Below are positions 35,496-47,777 of a stretch of DNA of 64,000 nt, in pieces (within the stretch, counting starts at the first letter, position 1; each line of letters opens with the position of its first letter). Source of the DNA: an uncultured Ktedonobacteraceae bacterium (GTDB lineage Bacteria > Chloroflexota > Ktedonobacteria > Ktedonobacterales > Ktedonobacteraceae); assembly GCA_964250765.1 (NCBI GenBank), contig CAXUHF010000016.1:192-64191 (forward strand). The letters are read 5' to 3'. The notes beneath the pieces are model-generated. The model searched no databases and had not been told where the DNA came from. It worked only from the letters and a program-made list of their open reading frames with translations. Made by a program: the position numbers and the translations under genes.

Positions 35496-36527
35496 CTATG
35501 CTTGAGCGAGATGCACGAGTGCTAAATGGGCGATTGGTTCAGCAAGGTTATATCCTCTTTGTATCCGTGCTAACAACCTCTCTATCTTAGGGGACCAGCC
35601 ATCACTGTTCGCGCGTGTAAATATCCATGCTCCTCCCCATGCAATGCTGAAACGAATCGCTTCAAGTAATATGTCTAACTCATCTTGTACAGGACGACGC
35701 CATTGAACATACCCTGAAATGACCGAGGTAATACGTGTCGGTTCTACCTCTGTTGGAATCTCGCCATGCTGATTGTACTGACATCGCAATAATAACGCTC
35801 CTAGATCAAGAATAGCTGCTCCTCTGCCTGCACACTCCCAATCAATCAATACAACTTCTTGTTTAGCACTTCGTACCGCATTGGGTGCCCAACAATCTCC
35901 ATGTATGATTGTTTCGGGAAGCCGAGGAATACTATCCTGTAGCATGTGAAGTGTTCTGTAAATAGTTTCATATAAGTTTTTGTGGGTGATAGGAACTGAT
36001 GAGGCAACAGTATTTAACATCTCAAGTGCATGTGGAATGCTATAGGTCGTATTCCACCAGGAGGAACCGAGTGACCCGGCTGGATGAAATGAGAGAGTGT
36101 GTAGCTGTCCAAGCATGTAGGCAAGGAGAAACATATTTTCTGGTGAGAGTTCATTTGCTAGTCCGTCAATGAATGTAGTGACTACTATGTTCCATTGCTG
36201 ATATGTACAGATCAATGTATTCGCCTTTGATGGAAGAACACGAGGGGCTGGATAGTTCTGCTGGGCAAGAAAGGTAAGAAGGGTAGCCCTCTGTTGTAGC
36301 CAAGCTACAAGCGTTAGGTTACTGCCCCAGCTGTACGTCTGACTATGAATAAAATCATCGTAGTACGCGAATACTACATGAGAATGCGCGGTCCCTTGCA
36401 CTATGTGATACATGTGATAGACAGTACGTTCATCTTCTAAAGAATGGGTGTTAAGCTCCCGTAATTCGAGAACTGTAAGTTCATAAAGCTCTGTCAGTGC
36501 TTTGGTAAAAAATGCTTGTTCGTTCAT
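35496..36527 (-). CDS. Aminoglycoside-phosphotransferase-fold (APH/choline-kinase-like) kinase
   Basis: 343 aa. Catalytic loop IHGDCWAPNAV followed by LIDWE. Immediately downstream of the lasso B gene. Confidence 0.75.
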   Translation of the reverse strand: MNEQAFFTKALTELYELTVLELRELNTHSLEDERTVYHMYHIVQGTAHSHVVFAYYDDFIHSQTYSWGSNLTLVAWLQQRATLLTFLAQQNYPAPRVLPSKANTLICTYQQWNIVVTTFIDGLANELSPENMFLLAYMLGQLHTLSFHPAGSLGSSWWNTTYSIPHALEMLNTVASSVPITHKNLYETIYRTLHMLQDSIPRLPETIIHGDCWAPNAVRSAKQEVVLIDWECAGRGAAILDLGALLLRCQYNQHGEIPTEVEPTRITSVISGYVQWRRPVQDELDILLEAIRFSIAWGGAWIFTRANSDGWSPKIERLLARIQRGYNLAEPIAHLALVHLAQA

Positions 36528-36617
36528 TCTCTCTTTTTCCTTTTTGACTTGTGATAGTAGACATTGTGTATAACGTTTCTTAAAAGTTCTGTGCTTCTGT
36601 CAAGAAGAAACATGCCT

Positions 36618-37574
36618 CTATGCATCCGAAGGTACGCGTTGAATCACTGAGTACCCAGTACGAAGTTCATCATTATCATTGACTACCCAATCAGCAAGCT
36701 CAACCCATGCATGGAAGGCAAAGCGATCAGATATGCCATAACGTTCGCGTCCCATAATCACTTGTGATGGAAAACCTAGTGCCCGTAAATAGGTGCAAAA
36801 AGCGACTGAACGTACAAGGCATAGAGCAGTTGGAGCAAGAAGTCTGACGATCATTTGGCATGAGACAAGTTCTCTTCGCGCCAGACGCTGGAGCATTTCG
36901 GTATCTAACGATAGAAGCTCAGTCTTTGGAGGGCAAGGGAGAGAGGTGAGAAATTGGCAGATGTTGCTCCACTCTTGCTCGTGGATATGTTGCGCAAGTT
37001 TGTAGAGGTGTCCTTGTATGAGAAGGTACGTCACGAGGCGGTAGCAACCGAAGATGAATAGAACACAAATAGTATTCCACAAGGCGTACCCACGCCGACG
37101 CTGTGAGAAAGAAGGGAGTGGTTCATTGACTAGTTTTCCAGTAAAGAAGACATCCCAATGTACACTACTCCTTTTCAGGACCCTTTGCTTATGAGGCTGT
37201 GATATTACAGGAGGACTGGAAGATACATGATGGCTTGTAGTGTCCTCATCTAACTGGAACGGCGTTGTAATAGAAGGTGGAAGCTCTTCCCGTTGCTCTA
37301 CGCGAATCAATTGCAAGGCAAGTAATTGTTGAATGACTTGCTGAAGCCCGCCTTCCAACTGTTCGTCACTTGCTTCTATACGTGTATGCACGTAGGCGAT
37401 GGTTTCGCGCTTAGTAGAACACTCTAGTCCAGCCTGCAAGAGCACTGTTGCAATAGGATCGAATGCAAGGCATGCGCCACTGAGAGAATGTATCATGCGC
37501 CCTTCTGTGTTGGTCGTGTCGAAAACGACTCCTTTCATCAATGTGACAAAGCTCAAAATTGTTGTGCCTTTCAT
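36618..37574 (-). CDS. Lasso peptide biosynthesis protein B (fused PqqD-like RRE B1 plus transglutaminase-like protease B2)
   Basis: N-terminal PqqD-like segment (VVFDTTNTEGRMIHSLSGACLAFDPIATVLLQ). C-terminal Cys/His/Asp core (CLVRSVAFCTYLRALGF...FHAWVELADWVVNDND). Confidence 0.8.
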   Translation of the reverse strand: MKGTTILSFVTLMKGVVFDTTNTEGRMIHSLSGACLAFDPIATVLLQAGLECSTKRETIAYVHTRIEASDEQLEGGLQQVIQQLLALQLIRVEQREELPPSITTPFQLDEDTTSHHVSSSPPVISQPHKQRVLKRSSVHWDVFFTGKLVNEPLPSFSQRRRGYALWNTICVLFIFGCYRLVTYLLIQGHLYKLAQHIHEQEWSNICQFLTSLPCPPKTELLSLDTEMLQRLARRELVSCQMIVRLLAPTALCLVRSVAFCTYLRALGFPSQVIMGRERYGISDRFAFHAWVELADWVVNDNDELRTGYSVIQRVPSDA

Positions 37575-37600
37575 CTCTCTTCTAATCTCAGGAGCTTTCG

Positions 37601-39322
37601 CTAACTATGGTTAGTATAGTGTCGAAGAAATAATTCTGTCATCGCTGTCGCAATCAACACTTTGTAATATGTCCGAATAGAGCGTTCACTGCTAAGAACT
37701 TTCTGTAGCTGTAGAGGGTCTATGATGCCTTGCTGAACAACCTGAGATGTAGGACTACTAAGCAATCGTGCGAGATAGGGAGCGAAGGAAATACAATACT
37801 CCTGACTGGGAACACTCAGCCACGCTCCTCGGCGATACCTTACTACTGACGGTGGCAAGCAACTTGCGTAGGCCAATCGAAGTACAGGTTTGACGACTTT
37901 CATGCCCTGAAAAGGAATGAGTCGATACGCGTTTGGAAGACTGGCCGATAGCTGTTGCACGGCTGCTTGATGATATGGATGAACAACACGAATACCATGA
38001 GGCTGCCAGATAGAAGTCTCCAGTGCTAAATCTTGTGGAGAGAAACGTGTTACATCGTAAAGAAGGTGGTCTTGGAAGGATCGCACTGTATGCTGACGGA
38101 AAAAAGGAACTTCTTGCGTTGCAGATTGACTATCGGTTGTTGAAGAGAGGCTGCTTTCGTTAATCAGAGAAGAGGATGTTCGTATACTTTTGAGAAGTTC
38201 AGGCAGTATCCAGTCAGTAGAAAGAGCACCACTCAGCATTGCGAGTTTTTCTTTTAAAGAGATAGGTGCAGAGAAGATATCATACAGACCATAGGAATAC
38301 TGAGGACCAAAGGAGATATCTCCGCCTCGCCCTGTAGTTAGAATGGAGATGCCATCTTTCTGCATCTGATCTGCTGCTTGCTCGAACCATCGCATACCAG
38401 CATGATTGTAAGGGTGTGGGAAACGCCAGTCTTCCGAGAGGTAATCACTTCCAATGCTCACGTGAATCGGGATAAATGGGATAGATAGAGCTTGGCAAAC
38501 TGCTTTTGCATAGGCTGACTCGTCGGCAGCCGTGTTTGAAAAGCTGAAATGGTACGCAACCACATCGGCTCCATGCTCTACAAGTGCAGCCGCGACTACC
38601 GAAGAATCAATTCCCCCGCTCAATAAGATACCTATCTTACATTGTAATGATGTGAGAGGACGCGTGGCTTCCGATACTGCCTCATGACACAGGACAGAGA
38701 GTTCTGGTAGGGCGACACGATGCGGAAGTGCTAAAGGTTTGATTTCGTCAAAAACAGCGTTTTGTACAGATAGCTGGTCAATACGCACTACCGTTCCAGC
38801 ATGTACACGCTCTATGCCATAAAAGACAAATATATCGTTTCCCATACAACACTGGACAAGAGCATTCGTGTCAATGTTCTGACTCGTGACAAGGTCACGA
38901 GGGTTAGTTGACCATTTGACGCTTCCATTGTGATGCGTATAAAAAATGGTGGTATTCGAGGTGCGGCTTTTGAAGAACCACACGGCGTCTAATGTAATGA
39001 AACAACCGCAATAGTCGCCAGATGGTAGTGCGTTAAGATGATTGTCTTTGAGGGCGTTCGTGATTTTTTCCACAGTAGCCAACACGTGGGCTGTAACAGG
39101 TAACACGAGACCCGCGAGAAACAGGTGTTCATCTGCTTTAAGCTGAGGAAGTGGTGCGAAGATATCTTGTTGTAGTGAGATGCTCTGTGCGGCTTGATTT
39201 ACCATGTATGGTATTGATGAAGGAGCAGTGTGCGTGTGACAATACGTTTTTACTTGTAACCCCTTCACAGGAAATTGGATGTATCCACAAAAGCCATCGT
39301 ATGCAAGTGCTCGTTGCACCAT
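37601..39322 (-). CDS. Lasso peptide cyclase C (asparagine synthetase B homolog)
   Basis: PP-loop motif LLSGGIDSSVVAA. AsnB-like length. Likely start at ATG 39322 after GAGGAAGG. The ORF extends to TTG 39337. Confidence 0.85.
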   Translation of the reverse strand: MVQRALAYDGFCGYIQFPVKGLQVKTYCHTHTAPSSIPYMVNQAAQSISLQQDIFAPLPQLKADEHLFLAGLVLPVTAHVLATVEKITNALKDNHLNALPSGDYCGCFITLDAVWFFKSRTSNTTIFYTHHNGSVKWSTNPRDLVTSQNIDTNALVQCCMGNDIFVFYGIERVHAGTVVRIDQLSVQNAVFDEIKPLALPHRVALPELSVLCHEAVSEATRPLTSLQCKIGILLSGGIDSSVVAAALVEHGADVVAYHFSFSNTAADESAYAKAVCQALSIPFIPIHVSIGSDYLSEDWRFPHPYNHAGMRWFEQAADQMQKDGISILTTGRGGDISFGPQYSYGLYDIFSAPISLKEKLAMLSGALSTDWILPELLKSIRTSSSLINESSLSSTTDSQSATQEVPFFRQHTVRSFQDHLLYDVTRFSPQDLALETSIWQPHGIRVVHPYHQAAVQQLSASLPNAYRLIPFQGMKVVKPVLRLAYASCLPPSVVRYRRGAWLSVPSQEYCISFAPYLARLLSSPTSQVVQQGIIDPLQLQKVLSSERSIRTYYKVLIATAMTELFLRHYTNHS

Positions 39323-39461
39323 CACGACCTTCCTCAAAAAAAGCTCTAGAGCAAATGGATTTTCTCAAGAAGCCAAAAGTGAAATAAAATGGCTTCATTT
39401 GTAGTCGGAGTTTTTGTGCCTGAGAGCACGAAAAACATAGATGAGGGAAGAGGCAACATGA

Positions 39462-39629
39462 CTATTTACGGTTGTCACTATAGCTATCGTATTCGCTCGA
39501 GTTTCCTCCTTGCCCAGTTTGCACCGTGATGTTACCGATAGAACGAATACACGGAGTGGTGAATGGAATCTTTTGAGACTCACGGTCTGCACCGCTCTTG
39601 GACGTTTCTAGTTGTTGAGTAGTGTCCAC
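39462..39629 (-). CDS. Putative lasso peptide precursor (A), 55 aa
   Basis: Hand-translated ORF below the 60-aa track cutoff, GTG 39629 to TAG 39462: MDTTQQLETSKSGADRESQKIPFTTPCIRSIGNITVQTGQGGNSSEYDSYSDNRK. The leader fits YxxPxLx3Gx5Tx spacing. An AGGGA SD lies 6 nt upstream. The ORF ends 139 nt upstream of the cyclase gene. Confidence 0.6.
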   Translation of the reverse strand: MDTTQQLETSKSGADRESQKIPFTTPCIRSIGNITVQTGQGGNSSEYDSYSDNRK

Positions 39630-40100
39630 GCTTTTTCCCTTCGTACTTTGTGCTTACTGCTGCTATTGTATCTAACCGTAATGATAAAGCAGCTAAGCAT
39701 CTGATGAAAAGTGTCCCAGCACGGTACACATTCTTCGTTGATTCCCCTTGGACAGTTAAGCCCTCTATTCAACGAAATAATGGAAACACCATCGTTTACC
39801 GTGTGGGTGCGAGCAGTCATTCAGGATATGCTTCTGTAAGCCTAGCAGACTCTTCGCACGAAAACCATACACTACAGCACGAAATAGGCACAGTGATGTA
39901 AGCCGACTTCGCGCTGTACTAGAAACAATTACTATAATTGAGTGGCAAAGGACTAAAAGTTTTTTTAGCATATATTACTGGACTTCAAGGCAATTTGGGC
40001 GTACAATTTTAAGTAGGTAGTACATCTGCTTGTCTATGAAGAGTGTAGAAAACGATTGAGGCATAAAGCAATTGGTGTCGAGAAAGGTGTTGTAGACGCT

Positions 40101-42163
40101 ATGGATAACGAGCAAAGAGGTCACTCGCGGACCAACGAAGACTTCGTGGTGAAGGTGTTTCTCTGTGGACCATTGCGTCTCCAGCGTCTTTGCGTAGACA
40201 ACAACCCAGAATCATGTATCTTCCTACCAAGACATTCCTCCAACAGAGTGGGGAGAGCGACCAGGACCAACCTTCAGCTTGCTCAAACTACTCCTCTGCT
40301 GTGAGAACCGCCACGCCTCCAAGACGTTTCTTGCTAGTACGCTCTGACCCGATTATGGCGAGAGAGAAGCACGACACAGTCTCAGTCAAGCAACACGAGT
40401 GCTCCGTTCCCTCCTCCGTATAGGTGAAGAGGACTCGAAGAGCGAGGGCAAAATGAAGAGTTTGCTCTACGAGTCGCCAGGAGGGGAAGGGTTCCAACTC
40501 GCCGATCAAACGTTGCTCTGGGTAGACATTGATGCCTTTGAAGATGCGATGAAGCAGGCCACTTATGCGGAACGTCACAATCAGAAGGAAGAAGTACGCT
40601 TTTGGTGGGAACGAGCATACGCGCTCGGCAGTTCGGGAAGCTTCTTGCCCGATGACCTGTATCGAGAATGGACCAATGCTCGTCGTCTCAGACACGAACT
40701 GCTGGTTCCCAGGTGTGCTCGTCGTCTGGCAGAATGTTATGTCGCTGAAGAACGCTATGGGGAGGCGGAAGCGGTCCTTCGCCCCTATTGGGCGACGCAT
40801 CTCACCGATGAAGATATTCTGATGCTCTTGATGCGGACGCTGCAAGCACAAGGGCTGGAACAAGAAGCCCTTCGCTGTTATGAGCAGAGTGTGCATGGGT
40901 TGGACGAGGAACTAGGGGTCAAGCCGCATACGTCTACTACGAACTTAGCGGACCATATTCGGGGGCAGCAACACGAGCGTGATCGCACTCCCACACTACA
41001 TTTTCCTTCTCTTACACAGCAGAATAAGATGTCTTTTCCCTTTTCACAGGCAGTTACACAGGATATAATGAAAATTGTTCGTGAACTAGAGGGAGCAACT
41101 GAATTGAAATCACAAAGTAGTGTTAACCGTCGTGCCGTGATTGCACATCTTTTAGGGTTGCCACCCGCGCTTTTTGCTTCAGATGGTCATGTGGTTGATA
41201 CTTTGACGGATGCAATGAAGTTTCAAGAAGAAACGCTATCTTCCTTGTATGAAGACATGCTCGTCATGGGATGGGATAGCTTTCGGCGAAGTAAATCCCC
41301 ACAAATTATTACGAGGATTGATGAGCATGTGAAAAAGCTTACCGCACTTGCTCGTTATGATTCAACAGGGGATACAGAGCACTGGCAATCACTCTTATGC
41401 CGTTTCAGCCAACTCTCCACAAGAATTGCACAACATCGTATGAATGAACCCCGCGCATTGAATATGGCAAAACAAGCAATCATGATTGCCATAGACCTTG
41501 ATGATGCTGAAGCTATTGCTTCTACGTTTTATGGGCGTGGAAGAGTACATATGGAATATAGTAATACCTCTACTGATGTCAAACAAAAGCGGAAACATTT
41601 TGATCTTGCAAAAGCAGACATTGATGCTGCATTGGGGCATGTCGAACGAGTACGTATACCACTTGCAGGAAACATTTATTTACTTGCTGCTGAAATTTAT
41701 GCACTGGTAGCTGGGTAATGATATGCTCCTTCGTACCCAATGTGAAAAGTGGCAAGACAAGGTTGCATTCTTTGTTGACAGCGAAAAGATCGAAGATGAT
41801 GGAACGTTTCTAAAGCTCAATCCGACAGCCTTGCATCACGAAAGAGCAAAGACCTTACTTCGGTTTGGTCGGATCGAGGATGCACGTCGTGAACTCAACA
41901 CAGCTTGGAAAACGCTCCAACCAAATCTTTTTACGTGGCACATGAATATGCATCTTACACAAGCGAGTCTATTTCTTGCTGAACACGATATTGAAGAAAG
42001 TGTACAATCAAGTCTCAAAGCATACACCCTAGCAAAGACAATCCATTCACACAAGGGAGAGGTAGAGGTACGGTATCTGCTTGAGCAACTCCAGCAACTT
42101 GATACATCACATTCCTCTGTCCGAAATCTCACAATGACCATAGAGGCGACTCATGAGCAATGA
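40101..42163 (+). pseudogene. Decayed SARP-family (wHTH-BTAD-TPR) regulator, paralog of 45870..47777
   Basis: The N-terminal wHTH region is spread over three frames (40056..40304, 40190..40423, 40399..). The BTAD/TPR body 40399..41718 is intact. A further frame change leads to 41723..42163. About 80% nucleotide similarity to the intact paralog by eye in the BTAD region. Confidence 0.6.
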
Positions 42164-43856: not shown

Positions 43857-44426
43857 TTACTGGTGTTCCAGCTCTTGCCAACGGTAACAAGTCACGATGT
43901 GATCGTTCACCATCCCAACGGCCTGCATAAAAGCATAGCAAATGGTCGAACCGACAAAGGTAAAACCGTGCTGCTTGAGTTCCTTACTCATCGTGTCCGA
44001 TTGCGTAGTACGTGCAGGGACTTCCTGCATCGTTTGCCAAGTGTTCTGCAGGGGATGTCCATCTACAAATCGCCAGAGAAAGGCGTCGAAACTGCCATAC
44101 TGGGATTGGACCTCAAGAAACGAACGTGCGTTCTGAATGGTGGCCTTGATTTTGAGCTTGTTTCGCACGATCTCAGGGTTTGCCAGTAGCTCCTGAACTT
44201 TCCGGTCATCATAGTGAGCGATTGTGTTCGCATCAAAGCCATCAAACGCTTCAAAATATCCATCGCGCTTTTTGAGGATGAGCGACCAACTCAAACCCGC
44301 CTGAGCCCCTTCGAGGATCAGCATCTCAAAGAGCTTGCGGTCATCATGAACAGGCACTCCCCATTCACTATCATGGTAATCGGTATATTGTTGGCTGGTT
44401 AAAGCCCAAGCACATCTTTGTAACAT
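43857..44426 (-). CDS. tag: DNA-3-methyladenine glycosylase I
   Basis: 189 aa. YHDSEWGVPVHDDRKLFEMLILEGAQAGLSWSLILKKR is the Tag signature. Confidence 0.9.
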   Translation of the reverse strand: MLQRCAWALTSQQYTDYHDSEWGVPVHDDRKLFEMLILEGAQAGLSWSLILKKRDGYFEAFDGFDANTIAHYDDRKVQELLANPEIVRNKLKIKATIQNARSFLEVQSQYGSFDAFLWRFVDGHPLQNTWQTMQEVPARTTQSDTMSKELKQHGFTFVGSTICYAFMQAVGMVNDHIVTCYRWQELEHQ

Positions 44427-44728: not shown

Positions 44729-45688
44729 ATGATGCTAAAGAGGTTTGTAATGCGTACTGTCGTTTCATCTTCTGTAAGAACAGGAACATTTAACGCAAAC
44801 TTTACACGGTCACTTCACTATTTTTGTACTGAAGCTACACAAAAGCTCACCTATCCAGGGTATTTTGACTCTCGAGCAAATTGGTATCGTCTTATCTCAG
44901 TAGATAATAAAGCTGTAACCATTATGGTATCTCCAGAAGGATGTATCCAGTGGGCATGTGAAGAAGCTATTGAGGATGTCAGAGTGCAGGATGTTGTCAA
45001 CCATCTCCTTATTTCGATGCTACTGCCAAAGGATGTCGAGAGGCAGCTTCCTCGTGAGTTAGAGGAACGCTTTCGCCCTCTCTCACCCCTTGTTCATATT
45101 CGTAGCCTCTCTCTTGGTGAAGCGGTCATAAAGGCGATTATTCGTCAGGTGATAACAGCGGGTCATGCAAAGAAGCTGACTGATTCATTCATTAGGCACT
45201 ATGGCACAAGACAGGTGCATGATGGCAGAGAATACTATGACTTTCCAACATTGGAAGCACTCACAAAAATTCCTCTTGAAGACTTACAAGCAGAGGGACT
45301 GGGGTTCAAGGCAAAAGTTGTTCGCTGGGCGGCTTGCAGCATGCTAGAAAACGATATGGAGGCAAAGATCGCTACAAGGACTCCAGAGGAAATACTCGAT
45401 ATGTTGACCTCAATAAAAGGCATCGGTAGGTGGACAGCACATGTTGCGATCTGTGATGTGCTTGCTGACTGGTCTCTCTATCCTTTTGAGGATTTAGCGG
45501 TCAGAACGTGGGCACGGAAGCTTTGGAGTGAGGTGCAGTGGCCTCAAGACGAACATGCGTTTGCAGCACTCTGGCAACAAATGCACGGAGAGCATACTGG
45601 CATTGTGACGTTTTACCTGCTTTCTTGTGCAGCAATTCCGGCAATTGTACAAACACCACAACAGGACATGCAGAAAGAAATTTTCTAG
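44729..45688 (+). CDS. HhH-GPD superfamily DNA glycosylase (AlkA-like)
   Basis: 319 aa. Helix-hairpin-helix IKGIGRWTAHVAI followed by a conserved Asp context (PFEDLAVR). Confidence 0.7.
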   Translation: MMLKRFVMRTVVSSSVRTGTFNANFTRSLHYFCTEATQKLTYPGYFDSRANWYRLISVDNKAVTIMVSPEGCIQWACEEAIEDVRVQDVVNHLLISMLLPKDVERQLPRELEERFRPLSPLVHIRSLSLGEAVIKAIIRQVITAGHAKKLTDSFIRHYGTRQVHDGREYYDFPTLEALTKIPLEDLQAEGLGFKAKVVRWAACSMLENDMEAKIATRTPEEILDMLTSIKGIGRWTAHVAICDVLADWSLYPFEDLAVRTWARKLWSEVQWPQDEHAFAALWQQMHGEHTGIVTFYLLSCAAIPAIVQTPQQDMQKEIF

Positions 45689-45869: not shown

Positions 45870-47777
45870 ATGGATATCGAAAAGGAAGTAGTTGCCATGA
45901 ACGAAACAGTACAACCGCATTCGCTCACCGATGCTCCTGTTTTCAAAATCTCTCTGTGTGGACCCCTTCACCTCCTCTATAAAGAGCGGATTGATGGTGA
46001 TGCACCTTCCATATACCGCGATATTTCTGCAACCGAGTTGGGCGAACGTCCAGGCACCACCCTCAATTTGCTCAAGTTGCTCCTATGCTGTGAGAACCGT
46101 CATGCGACCAAGACCTTTCTTGCAGATGCTCTGTGGCCTGAGTCGGGTGAGCGAGAAGGACGTCACAGTCTCAGTCAAGCCACGCGCACGCTTCGCCTTC
46201 TGTTACGGGTTAACACCGAGGAACCAAAGGGGAAGAGCAAGAGTCTCTTGTTCGAGTCGCTAGGAGGAGAAGGGTTCCAGCTTGCCGACCAGTCGCTCTT
46301 ATGGGTCGATGTTGATGCCTTTGAAGACGCGATGAAGCAAGCCACCCGCGCGGAACGCCAGAAACAGCAGGAAGAAGCGGTCATGTGGTTGGAACGAGCG
46401 TATGACCTGGGCAAAGCTGGTACCTTCTTGCCTGATGATATTTACAGAGAGTGGACCAATACACGTCGTCTCAGCCACGAGCTCCTTTTTCCCAGATGCA
46501 TTCGTCGGCTAGCAGAATACTACATCGCCGAGGAACGGTATGGCGAGGCCGAAGAGGTCCTTCGTCACTATTGGCTCACGCATTTGACCGATGAAGAGAT
46601 GCTCATGCTCCTCATGCAGACGTTGCAAGTACAAGGACTAGAGAAGGAAGCACTCAAATGCTATGAGCAGAGTGTAAGCGCATTAGATGAGGAACTAGGA
46701 GTCAAGCCTCAGCCGTCTACTACTGCTTTAGCAAATTTTATTCAAGAACAACAAAGAACACACAAACTCATTTCTTTTCCACATGTTTCTACAGTAATGA
46801 AAAAGGAAGAAGTACAGGTAGAAACGAATATACCAGTTAAAGCATTATCTGATAATGCTTATGACCATGATCAATTATTTAATGTTGAAGAGACCACGCC
46901 TGAGACGTTAGAGAGTTTTAGAACTTTGCTAGCTACGTGCCAACACCTTAGTGAAGGGAATAAACTCAAGGTTGCAGAGCGCATACTCTGGTCCTATCTT
47001 CCATATGTTGCGTCTCTCGCAAAACTTTCGTTAAGTGACCAGAGAACATCGGCAAATATTGCTTCACAAGGCTACTTGCTTGCAGCTTCTCTCGCCGGAC
47101 ACCGAAACGATCTTCACGCGAGACAGCAATTAAGCGAACAATCCTTACTGTACGGGAAACTAGCAAGCGACCGTAACTTACAAATTGCGGCGATACGAAA
47201 GCTAGCAATCACCTATGATTATTTGGGACGCCCAGACAAGATACTCCAAATCTATCAGCAAACTTTTCCATACTTAGAAGAAGTTTCTTCACTCTTACGT
47301 GCATGTCTCTATGCAGATATATCGGCTGCCTACGCTCAGTTGAATCAGCAGCAGGAAGCTCTCCGCTTCTTAGGACTAGCGTATGAGCATTTCCCTGAAA
47401 AGTATAATAACGAACCAAGTTTCCTTCATACCATTTGTAGATATTCTACACTCATCATTTGCGATGGACTGCATCACCTTCACTTTGGTCAACCGCATGA
47501 GGCAGCGAAAATCTTTGCTCGTATTGATGGGCTACAGCCAAAGGTAGCAATGCCAGAACGAGTTCGTATTGGTTTACTCAATTGCCAAGTAGAGGTTTTT
47601 ACTGAGTTAAAGAATATGGAACAAGCTACTCACTACCTCGAAGCTGCTAGCAAGGCATCTATCGCTATTGGAAGCGAAAGACGCTTTCAAGAGTCTTTCA
47701 CAGTCTTTCAGCAATTGCAAAAGACATGGAAAGATGAGCCGATGATCCGAAATTTAGAGAGCCTCTTTATTCGCTAG
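45870..47777 (+). CDS. SARP-family transcriptional regulator (OmpR-type wHTH plus BTAD plus C-terminal TPR)
   Basis: 635 aa. ISLCGPLHL...LLKLLLCCENRHATKTFLADALWPE...SLSQATRTLRLLL (wHTH). VDVDAFEDAMKQA...ERYGEAEEVLRHYW...LMQTLQVQGLEKEALKCYEQ (BTAD). TPR-like repeats follow. Confidence 0.8.
   Translation: MDIEKEVVAMNETVQPHSLTDAPVFKISLCGPLHLLYKERIDGDAPSIYRDISATELGERPGTTLNLLKLLLCCENRHATKTFLADALWPESGEREGRHSLSQATRTLRLLLRVNTEEPKGKSKSLLFESLGGEGFQLADQSLLWVDVDAFEDAMKQATRAERQKQQEEAVMWLERAYDLGKAGTFLPDDIYREWTNTRRLSHELLFPRCIRRLAEYYIAEERYGEAEEVLRHYWLTHLTDEEMLMLLMQTLQVQGLEKEALKCYEQSVSALDEELGVKPQPSTTALANFIQEQQRTHKLISFPHVSTVMKKEEVQVETNIPVKALSDNAYDHDQLFNVEETTPETLESFRTLLATCQHLSEGNKLKVAERILWSYLPYVASLAKLSLSDQRTSANIASQGYLLAASLAGHRNDLHARQQLSEQSLLYGKLASDRNLQIAAIRKLAITYDYLGRPDKILQIYQQTFPYLEEVSSLLRACLYADISAAYAQLNQQQEALRFLGLAYEHFPEKYNNEPSFLHTICRYSTLIICDGLHHLHFGQPHEAAKIFARIDGLQPKVAMPERVRIGLLNCQVEVFTELKNMEQATHYLEAASKASIAIGSERRFQESFTVFQQLQKTWKDEPMIRNLESLFIR

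Follow-up and report, generated by a model that had tools for sequence, protein, structure and literature searches.

Within a 64,000-nucleotide stretch of DNA from an uncultured Ktedonobacteraceae bacterium (positions 192 to 64,191 of contig CAXUHF010000016.1, assembly GCA_964250765.1; this whole stretch is called the window below), four consecutive open reading frames (ORFs), all intact in the ORF list, run along the minus strand from 39629 to 35496 and probably form an A-C-B-K operon for a class II lasso peptide, in which a precursor (A), a cyclase (C) and a fused B protein are joined by an APH-fold kinase (K). The probability of this reading as a whole, including a macrolactam closed between Gln1 and Asp9 of the core and the role given to the kinase, is estimated at about 0.7. 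The lasso family to which the peptide belongs is so far uncharacterized. An earlier note on this DNA had already read a lasso-peptide cluster here, and its coordinates for all cluster features were found to be correct when the sequence was re-read; the precursor motif, the cyclase, the B2 peptidase and the RRE expected of such a cluster were all recovered.

Precursor family, cleavage site and ring closure

The precursor gene is a minus-strand ORF of 55 residues that the earlier note had found outside the ORF track, and its GTG start at 39629 is preceded by GAAGGGA. A profile of six related peptides searched against 5.8 billion proteins retrieved 33 homologues, with E-values down to 1.5e-30, and 12 further, more divergent precursors came from searching 1.84 billion cluster representatives exhaustively with HMMER. 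The precursor set, which includes the window peptide, comprises 47 distinct sequences with 38 distinct cores, and all family counts given here are based on it. That the collection of 5.8 billion called proteins lacks the window's own peptide is consistent with its untracked status. In every related locus that could be read, an ORF of 55-68 residues that aligns with the window peptide lies directly upstream of the cyclase gene, and precursor homologues adjoin an orthologous cyclase wherever gene context is readable; the check for conservation that the earlier note had recommended was thus carried out, with a positive outcome. Synonymous codons are used across loci at invariant residues (Thr by ACT, ACC, ACG or ACA; Tyr by TAC or TAT; Asp by GAT or GAC; Ser by AGC or AGT; Arg by CGT or CGC), which indicates that selection acts on the peptide. 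Judged by this conservation, the small ORF is a real precursor gene. A metagenome scan with the precursor motif returned only 5 loci, and core strings of the EYDSY type were not found in a full-text literature search, most subscription journals being outside its reach.

The leader of the window precursor reads F23xxP26xI28xxxG32xxxxxT38G39 and fits the lasso leader motif YxxPxLx3Gx5Tx with Phe in place of Tyr and Ile in place of Leu, an interpretation of the earlier note that the family alignment bears out. Counted from a cut after Gly39, position -2 is Thr (Thr38) in 47/47 precursors, which is the stated rule for lasso leaders, while Ile, Val or Leu occupies -12 in all 47, Pro occupies -14 in 45 and Phe, Tyr, Trp or Leu occupies -17 in 46. 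The canonical leader numbering is recovered only with this cut, because Thr at -2, Ile/Val/Leu at -12, Pro at -14 and the aromatic residue at -17 fall into place there. The residue that follows the Thr is Gly in 42 precursors and Arg in five and therefore behaves as a variable -1 position rather than as the ring-forming residue 1. On this alignment, cleavage after Gly39, which would release the core QGGNSSEYDSYSDNRK with Gln1 as its first residue, is the most likely.

Core position 1 is Gln in 22 members of the family, Glu in 16, Asp in six, Ser in two and Gly in one, and the canonical first residues appear in the same register (a slash marks the cut) as TG/SGG... in P0135 and P0139, which start with Ser, and as TR/GGG in P0134, which starts with Gly. 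The earlier note had called Gln1 non-canonical; Gln, Glu or Asp there is indeed unusual, but no longer unheard of, and all residues other than Pro are found at position 1 in large predicted lasso sets (PMC13632552). Such first residues are therefore rare, though nothing new in kind.

An acidic acceptor is available within core positions 7-9. Position 9 (Asp48 of the precursor) is Asp in 46/47 members, and position 7 (Glu46) is Glu in 40/47, being replaced by Gln in four, Thr in two and Asp in one. Since Asp9 is kept in 46 members while Glu7 is replaced in seven, Asp9 is the most likely acceptor by comparison of the family, and the ring is most likely a nine-residue Gln1-Asp9 macrolactam with a seven-residue tail; the earlier note had not named this acceptor, and Glu7 is not conserved. 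Elsewhere in the core, Gly3 and Arg15 are invariant, Ser10 (45/47), Tyr8 (44/47), Ser5 (43/47) and Tyr11 (42/47) are retained in most members, and the C-terminal residue is variable (Pro in 21, Ser in eight, Lys in six, Ala in five, others in the rest; Lys in the window). Trp or Phe stands at core position 11 in P0093, P0129, P0132 and P0135, and Ala at position 10 in P0136. An extra Asp at core position 6 is found in P0138 and its relative P0130. A seven-residue Gln1-Glu7 ring was considered and rejected, as Glu7 gives way to Gln or Thr in six members whose cyclases are still orthologous.

The earlier note had left the start of the core open, setting beside the literal cut after Gly39 an alternative cut after Thr38, which would give the core GQGGNSSEYDSYSDNRK with an eight-residue Gly1-Glu8 ring of the kind that albusnodin and MccJ25 have. 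Gly is the most frequent first residue, it stands at this position in 42/47 precursors with Glu at the matching position in 40/47, and the GQGGNSSE of the window resembles the albusnodin core GQGGGQSE, which forms a Gly1-Glu8 ring (precursor sequence in PMC5974421). However, Arg replaces this Gly in five members, and Glu is absent in seven (Gln in four, Thr in two and Asp in one, six of them non-acidic), whose sequences are distinct from those of the Arg group. Under a Gly1-Glu8 ring, 11-12 of the 47 precursors would not be processable, against one under X1-Asp9. The cut would also shift Thr to -1 and move Pro and the aromatic residue away from the canonical -14 and -17, and albusnodin itself has Thr at -2 (ELTQ/GQGG; PMC5974421). 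The Gly1-Glu8 ring is thus highly unlikely, and the 47-member comparison decides in favor of the Gln1 start.

The cyclase, the B protein and the kinase

The cyclase, which the earlier note had described as AsnB-like, matches Pfam Asn_synthase (PF00733) with E=1.9e-20 and 74.3 bits against a cut-off of 21, and the PP-loop residues S240, G241, G242, D244 and S245 are invariant in 22 homologues. The mechanical ORF call takes TTG 39337 as its start. A Shine-Dalgarno-like sequence, GAGGAAGG, precedes the ATG at 39322, and the 573-residue database protein P0001, which is 100% identical, fits the gene as read from this ATG. About 60 homologues with 33-60% identity are nearly all metagenomic, those with a name coming from Ktedonobacteria (Thermosporothrix, Reticulibacter) and Streptomyces. 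A scan of genome contigs with the cyclase as a single protein gave no confirmed relative, and L007 is the sole family member among the 80 loci given by an alignment-based genome scan, the patterns chosen being those of the generic PP-loop.

The B protein scores 45.9 bits against the NCBIfam model lasso_biosyn_B2 (NF033537; cut-off 33), its C-terminal third matches Transglut_core3 (E=7.3e-12), and the protease triad expected here, Cys252, His288 and Asp300, is invariant. Its first ~90 residues are conserved among orthologues; PqqD (PF05402) matches five of seven aligned orthologues (best 3.2e-8), and the best match of the B profile in the PDB is the lasso RRE TbiB1, matched along its full length over residues 7-85 and with a weak E-value of 0.079. 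A single-sequence AlphaFold2 model of the protein was discarded (predicted local distance difference test, pLDDT, of 35). The matches support the fused B1-B2 protein of the earlier note, in which an RRE (B1) would be followed by a transglutaminase-like cysteine protease (B2).

The gene after B had been taken for a kinase of the APH type and not of the HPr-kinase type, and both its domain matches and its predicted fold agree. The protein scores 48.4 bits against Pfam APH (PF01636; cut-off 23.2), and its Pfam matches are confined to APH, EcKL and Choline_kinase, with none to HPr kinase. A search of the PDB with the single sequence gave no match, and the matches of a profile search include TvaE (8jsu; E=2e-4). 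An alignment-based AlphaFold2 model (pLDDT 94.9; predicted template modeling score 0.92) has as its top Foldseek matches homoserine kinase II (2ppq), NahK, AmiN, YtaA and APH(9), with template modeling scores of ~0.6-0.7 and identities of 11-15%, the Foldseek probability being 1.00 for 2ppq, 6sui and 3i0o. The residues H209, D211 and N216 of the HxDxxxxN motif and the Mg-binding D229 show no variation across 21 sequences, whose identity goes as low as 29%. No paper characterizing an APH-fold lasso kinase was found in a search of the literature that left most subscription journals out of reach.

Kinase orthologues with 40-56% identity are adjacent to A-C-B in 13/13 other loci that have Ser10/Tyr11 cores and enough flanking sequence. 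The order is K-A-C-B in 11 of them (L001-L007, L090, L091, L093 and L094) and A-C-B-K in two (L095 and L096), as in the window, and the persistence of the linkage through rearrangement and a divergence of ~60% in sequence suggests that the genes function together. Three outgroup clusters, whose cores are unrelated, lack the kinase, and so does the most divergent family locus (one locus seen twice, as L098 and L099), whose core, QGGTSKEYDAWDTKRSK, has Ala for Ser10 and Trp for Tyr11 and retains Ser5 and Tyr8. An all-against-all comparison of flanking ORFs revealed no other conserved gene (lyase, exporter or phosphatase) between divergent loci. By its distribution, the kinase is part of the cassette. 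In the L098 locus, a 376-residue protein without Pfam match or similarity to the kinase profile is encoded after B (L098:3527-4657, the same as L099:3398-4528), and an ISL3 transposase gene lies just downstream of it.

Proposed pathway and the role of the kinase

In the proposed pathway, the RRE domain of B would bind the leader through the motif F23xxP26xI28, and the B2 cysteine protease (Cys252/His288/Asp300) would cut after Gly39, guided by Thr38 at -2. The ATP-dependent cyclase would adenylate Asp9 and join its side chain to the alpha-amine of Gln1, yielding a nine-residue macrolactam threaded by the seven-residue tail SYSDNRK, in which Tyr11 and Arg15, at positions that are invariant or held only by aromatic residues, are candidate steric locks or plugs. 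The APH-fold kinase would phosphorylate a hydroxyl group of the core, either on the lasso or earlier on the linear precursor, and the phosphorylated peptide may be either the end product or a form that protects the producer. The leading, though still doubtful, candidate for the phosphosite is Ser10, which adjoins the isopeptide junction; it is singled out because it is nearly invariant and is lost together with Tyr11 in the kinase-less locus that retains Ser5 and Tyr8. That the APH-fold protein represents a second class of lasso kinases, independent of the first, which would phosphorylate Ser10 or Tyr11 internally on an Asp9-closed lasso started by Gln, Glu or Asp, is conceivable at somewhat below even odds.

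The cluster resembles those of the albusnodin/mirusin type (Streptomyces, Actinosynnema) in its fused RRE-protease B, its compact layout free of an exporter, its one obligatory-looking tailoring enzyme and its xGG-rich polar core, and the cyclase gives a weak match to the albusnodin/ikarugamycin cyclase model (NF033561; 32.4 bits against a cut-off of 300). Unlike albusnodin, for which acetylation is a prerequisite of maturation, the cluster has an APH kinase and no GNAT acetyltransferase gene, the core has Ser at position 10 instead of a conserved Lys10, and the predicted ring is X1-Asp9 as opposed to Gly1-Glu8; these differences place the cluster outside the albusnodin family. Clusters of the paeninodin type (PadeK, ThcoK, SyanK, PsmK) likewise combine a lasso peptide with one dedicated kinase and an expected O-phosphorylation of a core Ser. 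However, their kinases are homologous to HPr kinase and modify a Ser that is invariant at the C-terminus, whereas the kinase here has an APH (eukaryotic-like) fold and the C-terminus is variable; both defining features are thus missing, and by sequence the cluster is not a member of that type. The class II peptide palassoptide A2 from oral Actinomyces (2026) also has an acidic residue at core position 1, namely Glu, which was termed 'unprecedented' at its characterization in September 2026 (PMC13632552), but it differs in its eight-residue ring, split B1/B2, lack of a kinase, unrelated core and phylum.

With the APH small-molecule kinases (homoserine kinase II, NahK, AmiN, APH(9), YtaA/CotS), the kinase shares the fold, the Brenner motif HxDxxxxN and the Mg-binding Asp, but it stands at 11-15% identity from them, lacks an invariant beta3 Lys and would have a ribosomal peptide as its substrate. 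APH-fold proteins are also found in other clusters for peptides that are made on the ribosome and modified after translation (RiPPs), such as LxmK of class V lanthipeptides and TvaC/TvaE of thioamitides, where Ser or Thr of the core is likewise the expected target; those systems pair with a lyase for dehydration, whereas no lyase is present here and the similarity is marginal. A lasso cluster from metagenomic Acidobacteria, 482.1, likewise contains a protein that is labelled a kinase and described as 'aminoglycoside phosphotransferase family protein'; compared by its published description, this uncharacterized cluster has a split B1/B2 and two Gly-started precursors (PMC9064862).

Several points weigh against the pathway set out above. 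Product, ring, threading and phosphorylation are all predictions. P0138 carries Asn at core position 9 (QGGSSDTYNSYDGKRS) and is the sole family exception to Asp9; gene decay, an error in sequencing or a different ring may account for it. The PqqD match of the window's own B protein is weak (E=0.14). The choice of Ser10 draws on a single kinase-less locus, encountered twice, and in the wider family of 47 every hydroxyl residue of the core varies in at least some members. At the beta3 position that normally holds the ATP-anchoring Lys/Arg, the window kinase has Phe53 and most of its close homologues have a hydrophobic residue; in the lasso-linked clade this position is occupied by Phe, Leu, Ser and others, while the remote P0118 and P0122-P0126 keep Arg. 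This loss may render the kinase atypical or inactive, although a mostly conserved beta2 Arg (His41 in the window) might take the place of the missing residue.

The role of the kinase can be explained in other ways. AmiN phosphorylates amicoumacin, and enzymes of the APH/Vph type protect antibiotic producers. A kinase that inactivates the lasso peptide in its producer, and thereby compensates for a missing exporter or immunity gene, would be in keeping with the presence of AmiN and antibiotic phosphotransferases among the closest folds, with the absence of an exporter from the window and from every related locus, and with Lys acetylation as a documented means of self-resistance for triculamin and lariocidin (PMC13352647). 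We nevertheless consider such self-protection unlikely, given that the family is without known bioactivity or target, that the cluster has no linked phosphatase or exporter by which the product could be reactivated, and that a plain tailoring role fits the same data equally well.

It is less likely still that the protein is kinase-like without phosphorylating the peptide, serving as a scaffold or chaperone like TvaE in the thioamitide pathway or acting on another molecule. The loss of the beta3 Lys/Arg in the lasso-linked clade, the profile match to TvaE and the lack of a single invariant hydroxyl residue in the cores would be explained in this way; pseudokinases, however, usually lose the catalytic-loop and Mg-binding residues, and all four of these (His209, Asp211, Asn216 and Asp229) are invariant here, while the linkage to cores of the Ser10/Tyr11 type is strict. 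Phosphorylation of Ser10 might instead only initiate its dehydration to dehydroalanine, in the manner of the kinase/lyase pairs of class III-V lanthipeptides and thioamitides. The APH-fold kinases LxmK and TvaC work so in their pathways, the kinase gives a weak match to the NCBIfam LxmK model (E=0.0032), and a dehydroalanine lasso peptide from a 'hybrid' system is mentioned at second hand in PMC13352647. A score of 16.6 bits against a cut-off of 315 for this model (NF038156) and the absence of a lyase, HopA1-like or other, or of any further gene conserved with K-A-C-B in divergent loci nonetheless make dehydration very improbable.

Neighborhood, related loci and significance

Table 1. Features of the predicted lasso-peptide cluster and the adjoining regulator, in window coordinates
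Feature	Position	Strand	Description
Precursor A	39629..39462	minus	GTG start, TAG stop, 55 aa; translation MDTTQQLETSKSGADRESQKIPFTTPCIRSIGNITVQTGQGGNSSEYDSYSDNRK
Leader peptide, precursor A residues 1-39	39513..39629	minus	motif F23-x-x-P26-x-I28...G32...T38-G39
Core peptide QGGNSSEYDSYSDNRK, 16 aa	39465..39512	minus	predicted Gln1-Asp9 macrolactam and 7-residue tail
Precursor stop codon	39462-39464	minus	
A-C intergenic region	39323..39461	minus	139 nt
Lasso cyclase C, 573 aa	37601..39322	minus	Asn-synthetase homologue, PP-loop SGGxDS
Fused B protein, 318 aa	36618..37574	minus	putative N-terminal RRE ~7-90; C-terminal B2 ~219-312
APH-fold kinase, 343 aa	35496..36527	minus	fourth conserved cassette gene
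SARP-like regulator (BTAD + NsdA-like TPR)	40056..42163	plus	divergent from precursor gene; BTAD 1.6e-13, NsdA_fam_reg 1.1e-7

The hairpin that the earlier note placed between A and C (39369-39396) is present but weak, with GAAGCCA (39396-39390) pairing with TGGCTTC (39375-39369) in a 7-bp stem around a 14-nt loop. The spacer also holds a 5-bp hairpin and a GCUCUAGAGC-U7 element; its fold does not differ significantly from dinucleotide-preserving shuffles (z=-1.49), and a consensus scan flags no terminator in it. The hairpins of the relatives are much stronger, the most prominent being a 23-bp perfect stem directly after the precursor gene at L001:6054-6193 (-70.5 kcal/mol, z=-8.4), and stems of 11-16 bp are found in the A-C spacers of L004, L005, L007, L093, L095 and L097. 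A hairpin after the precursor gene that raises the ratio of precursor to enzymes is probably a family trait, degenerate in the window, where the spacer element is possibly a partial terminator or a transcript stabilizer.

The regulator that diverges from the precursor gene appears to be broken into three ORFs in three different frames (40056-40304, 40399-41718 and 41723-42163) and would thus be either a pseudogene or the product of an assembly error. It is only tentatively regarded as a cluster-situated regulator, and its membership of the cluster is uncertain because a homologue (37% identity) flanks just one related cluster, L007. A second BTAD-TPR regulator of 635 residues is intact at 45870-47777 (plus strand), and base-excision repair genes for a methyladenine glycosylase and an HhH-GPD protein lie nearby at 43857-44426 (minus) and 44729-45688 (plus); these genes appear unrelated to the cluster. 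In agreement with the statement of the earlier note that no ABC exporter is present, Pfam scans of the larger neighboring proteins from 31.5 to 51.5 kb gave no exporter match, and none lies within ~10 kb. Neither the Rfam nor the tRNA scan of the window gave a match, and PADLOC gave no match relevant to a role in anti-phage defense. Recent horizontal transfer was rejected, the GC fraction being 0.43-0.47 in cluster and flanks alike.

Among the outgroups, the locus L089 encodes a precursor (L089:5662-5832) read as LTA/LLSNGTPDLLSHGNIL (LTA/LLSNGTPD), with a putative Leu1-Asp8 ring, a C39-ABC exporter and no kinase, and the Streptomyces locus L088 encodes a precursor (L088:5788-5940) read as LTA/HGGFPRPSEPLL (LTA/HGGFPRPSE), perhaps with a His1-Glu9 ring and likewise without a kinase. 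Their cyclases, at 36-39% identity, belong to the same clade, and their leaders are canonical while their first residues are not Gly; this cyclase clade may therefore be tolerant at position 1 in general. In Thermosporothrix hazakensis, an IS630-type transposase gene (L087:5357-5966) sits upstream of the cyclase, where one would expect the precursor, no precursor-like ORF was found in the 13.6-kb L087 locus, and this cluster may be inactivated. In L001, a phage-type integrase gene (L001:3186-4379) lies immediately upstream of the kinase gene, and a PCMT-type protein methyltransferase is encoded ~4 kb downstream of B (L001:12766-13710). PCMT homologues make aspartimide in lihuanodin-type lasso peptides.

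The family comparison shows how a set of precursors can settle an ambiguity of the cleavage site that is beyond the reach of one sequence. Its orthologous cyclases and proteases, which handle natural Gln, Glu, Asp, Ser and Gly starts, constitute a natural experiment on tolerance at position 1. As stable scaffolds, lasso peptides serve antibiotic discovery and peptide engineering, and every new tailoring enzyme extends what can be built on them; the present cluster offers a kinase fold that has apparently not yet been characterized on lasso peptides, together with a short list of candidate sites, in a cassette of four genes that is compact, has no exporter and should be readily expressed. If the proposed reading is true, the product would be, to our knowledge, the first internally phosphorylated lasso peptide, and the family the first from Ktedonobacteria or Chloroflexota to be characterized. 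Phosphorylation could then be needed for maturation, in the manner of albusnodin acetylation, or could act as a built-in form of self-protection.

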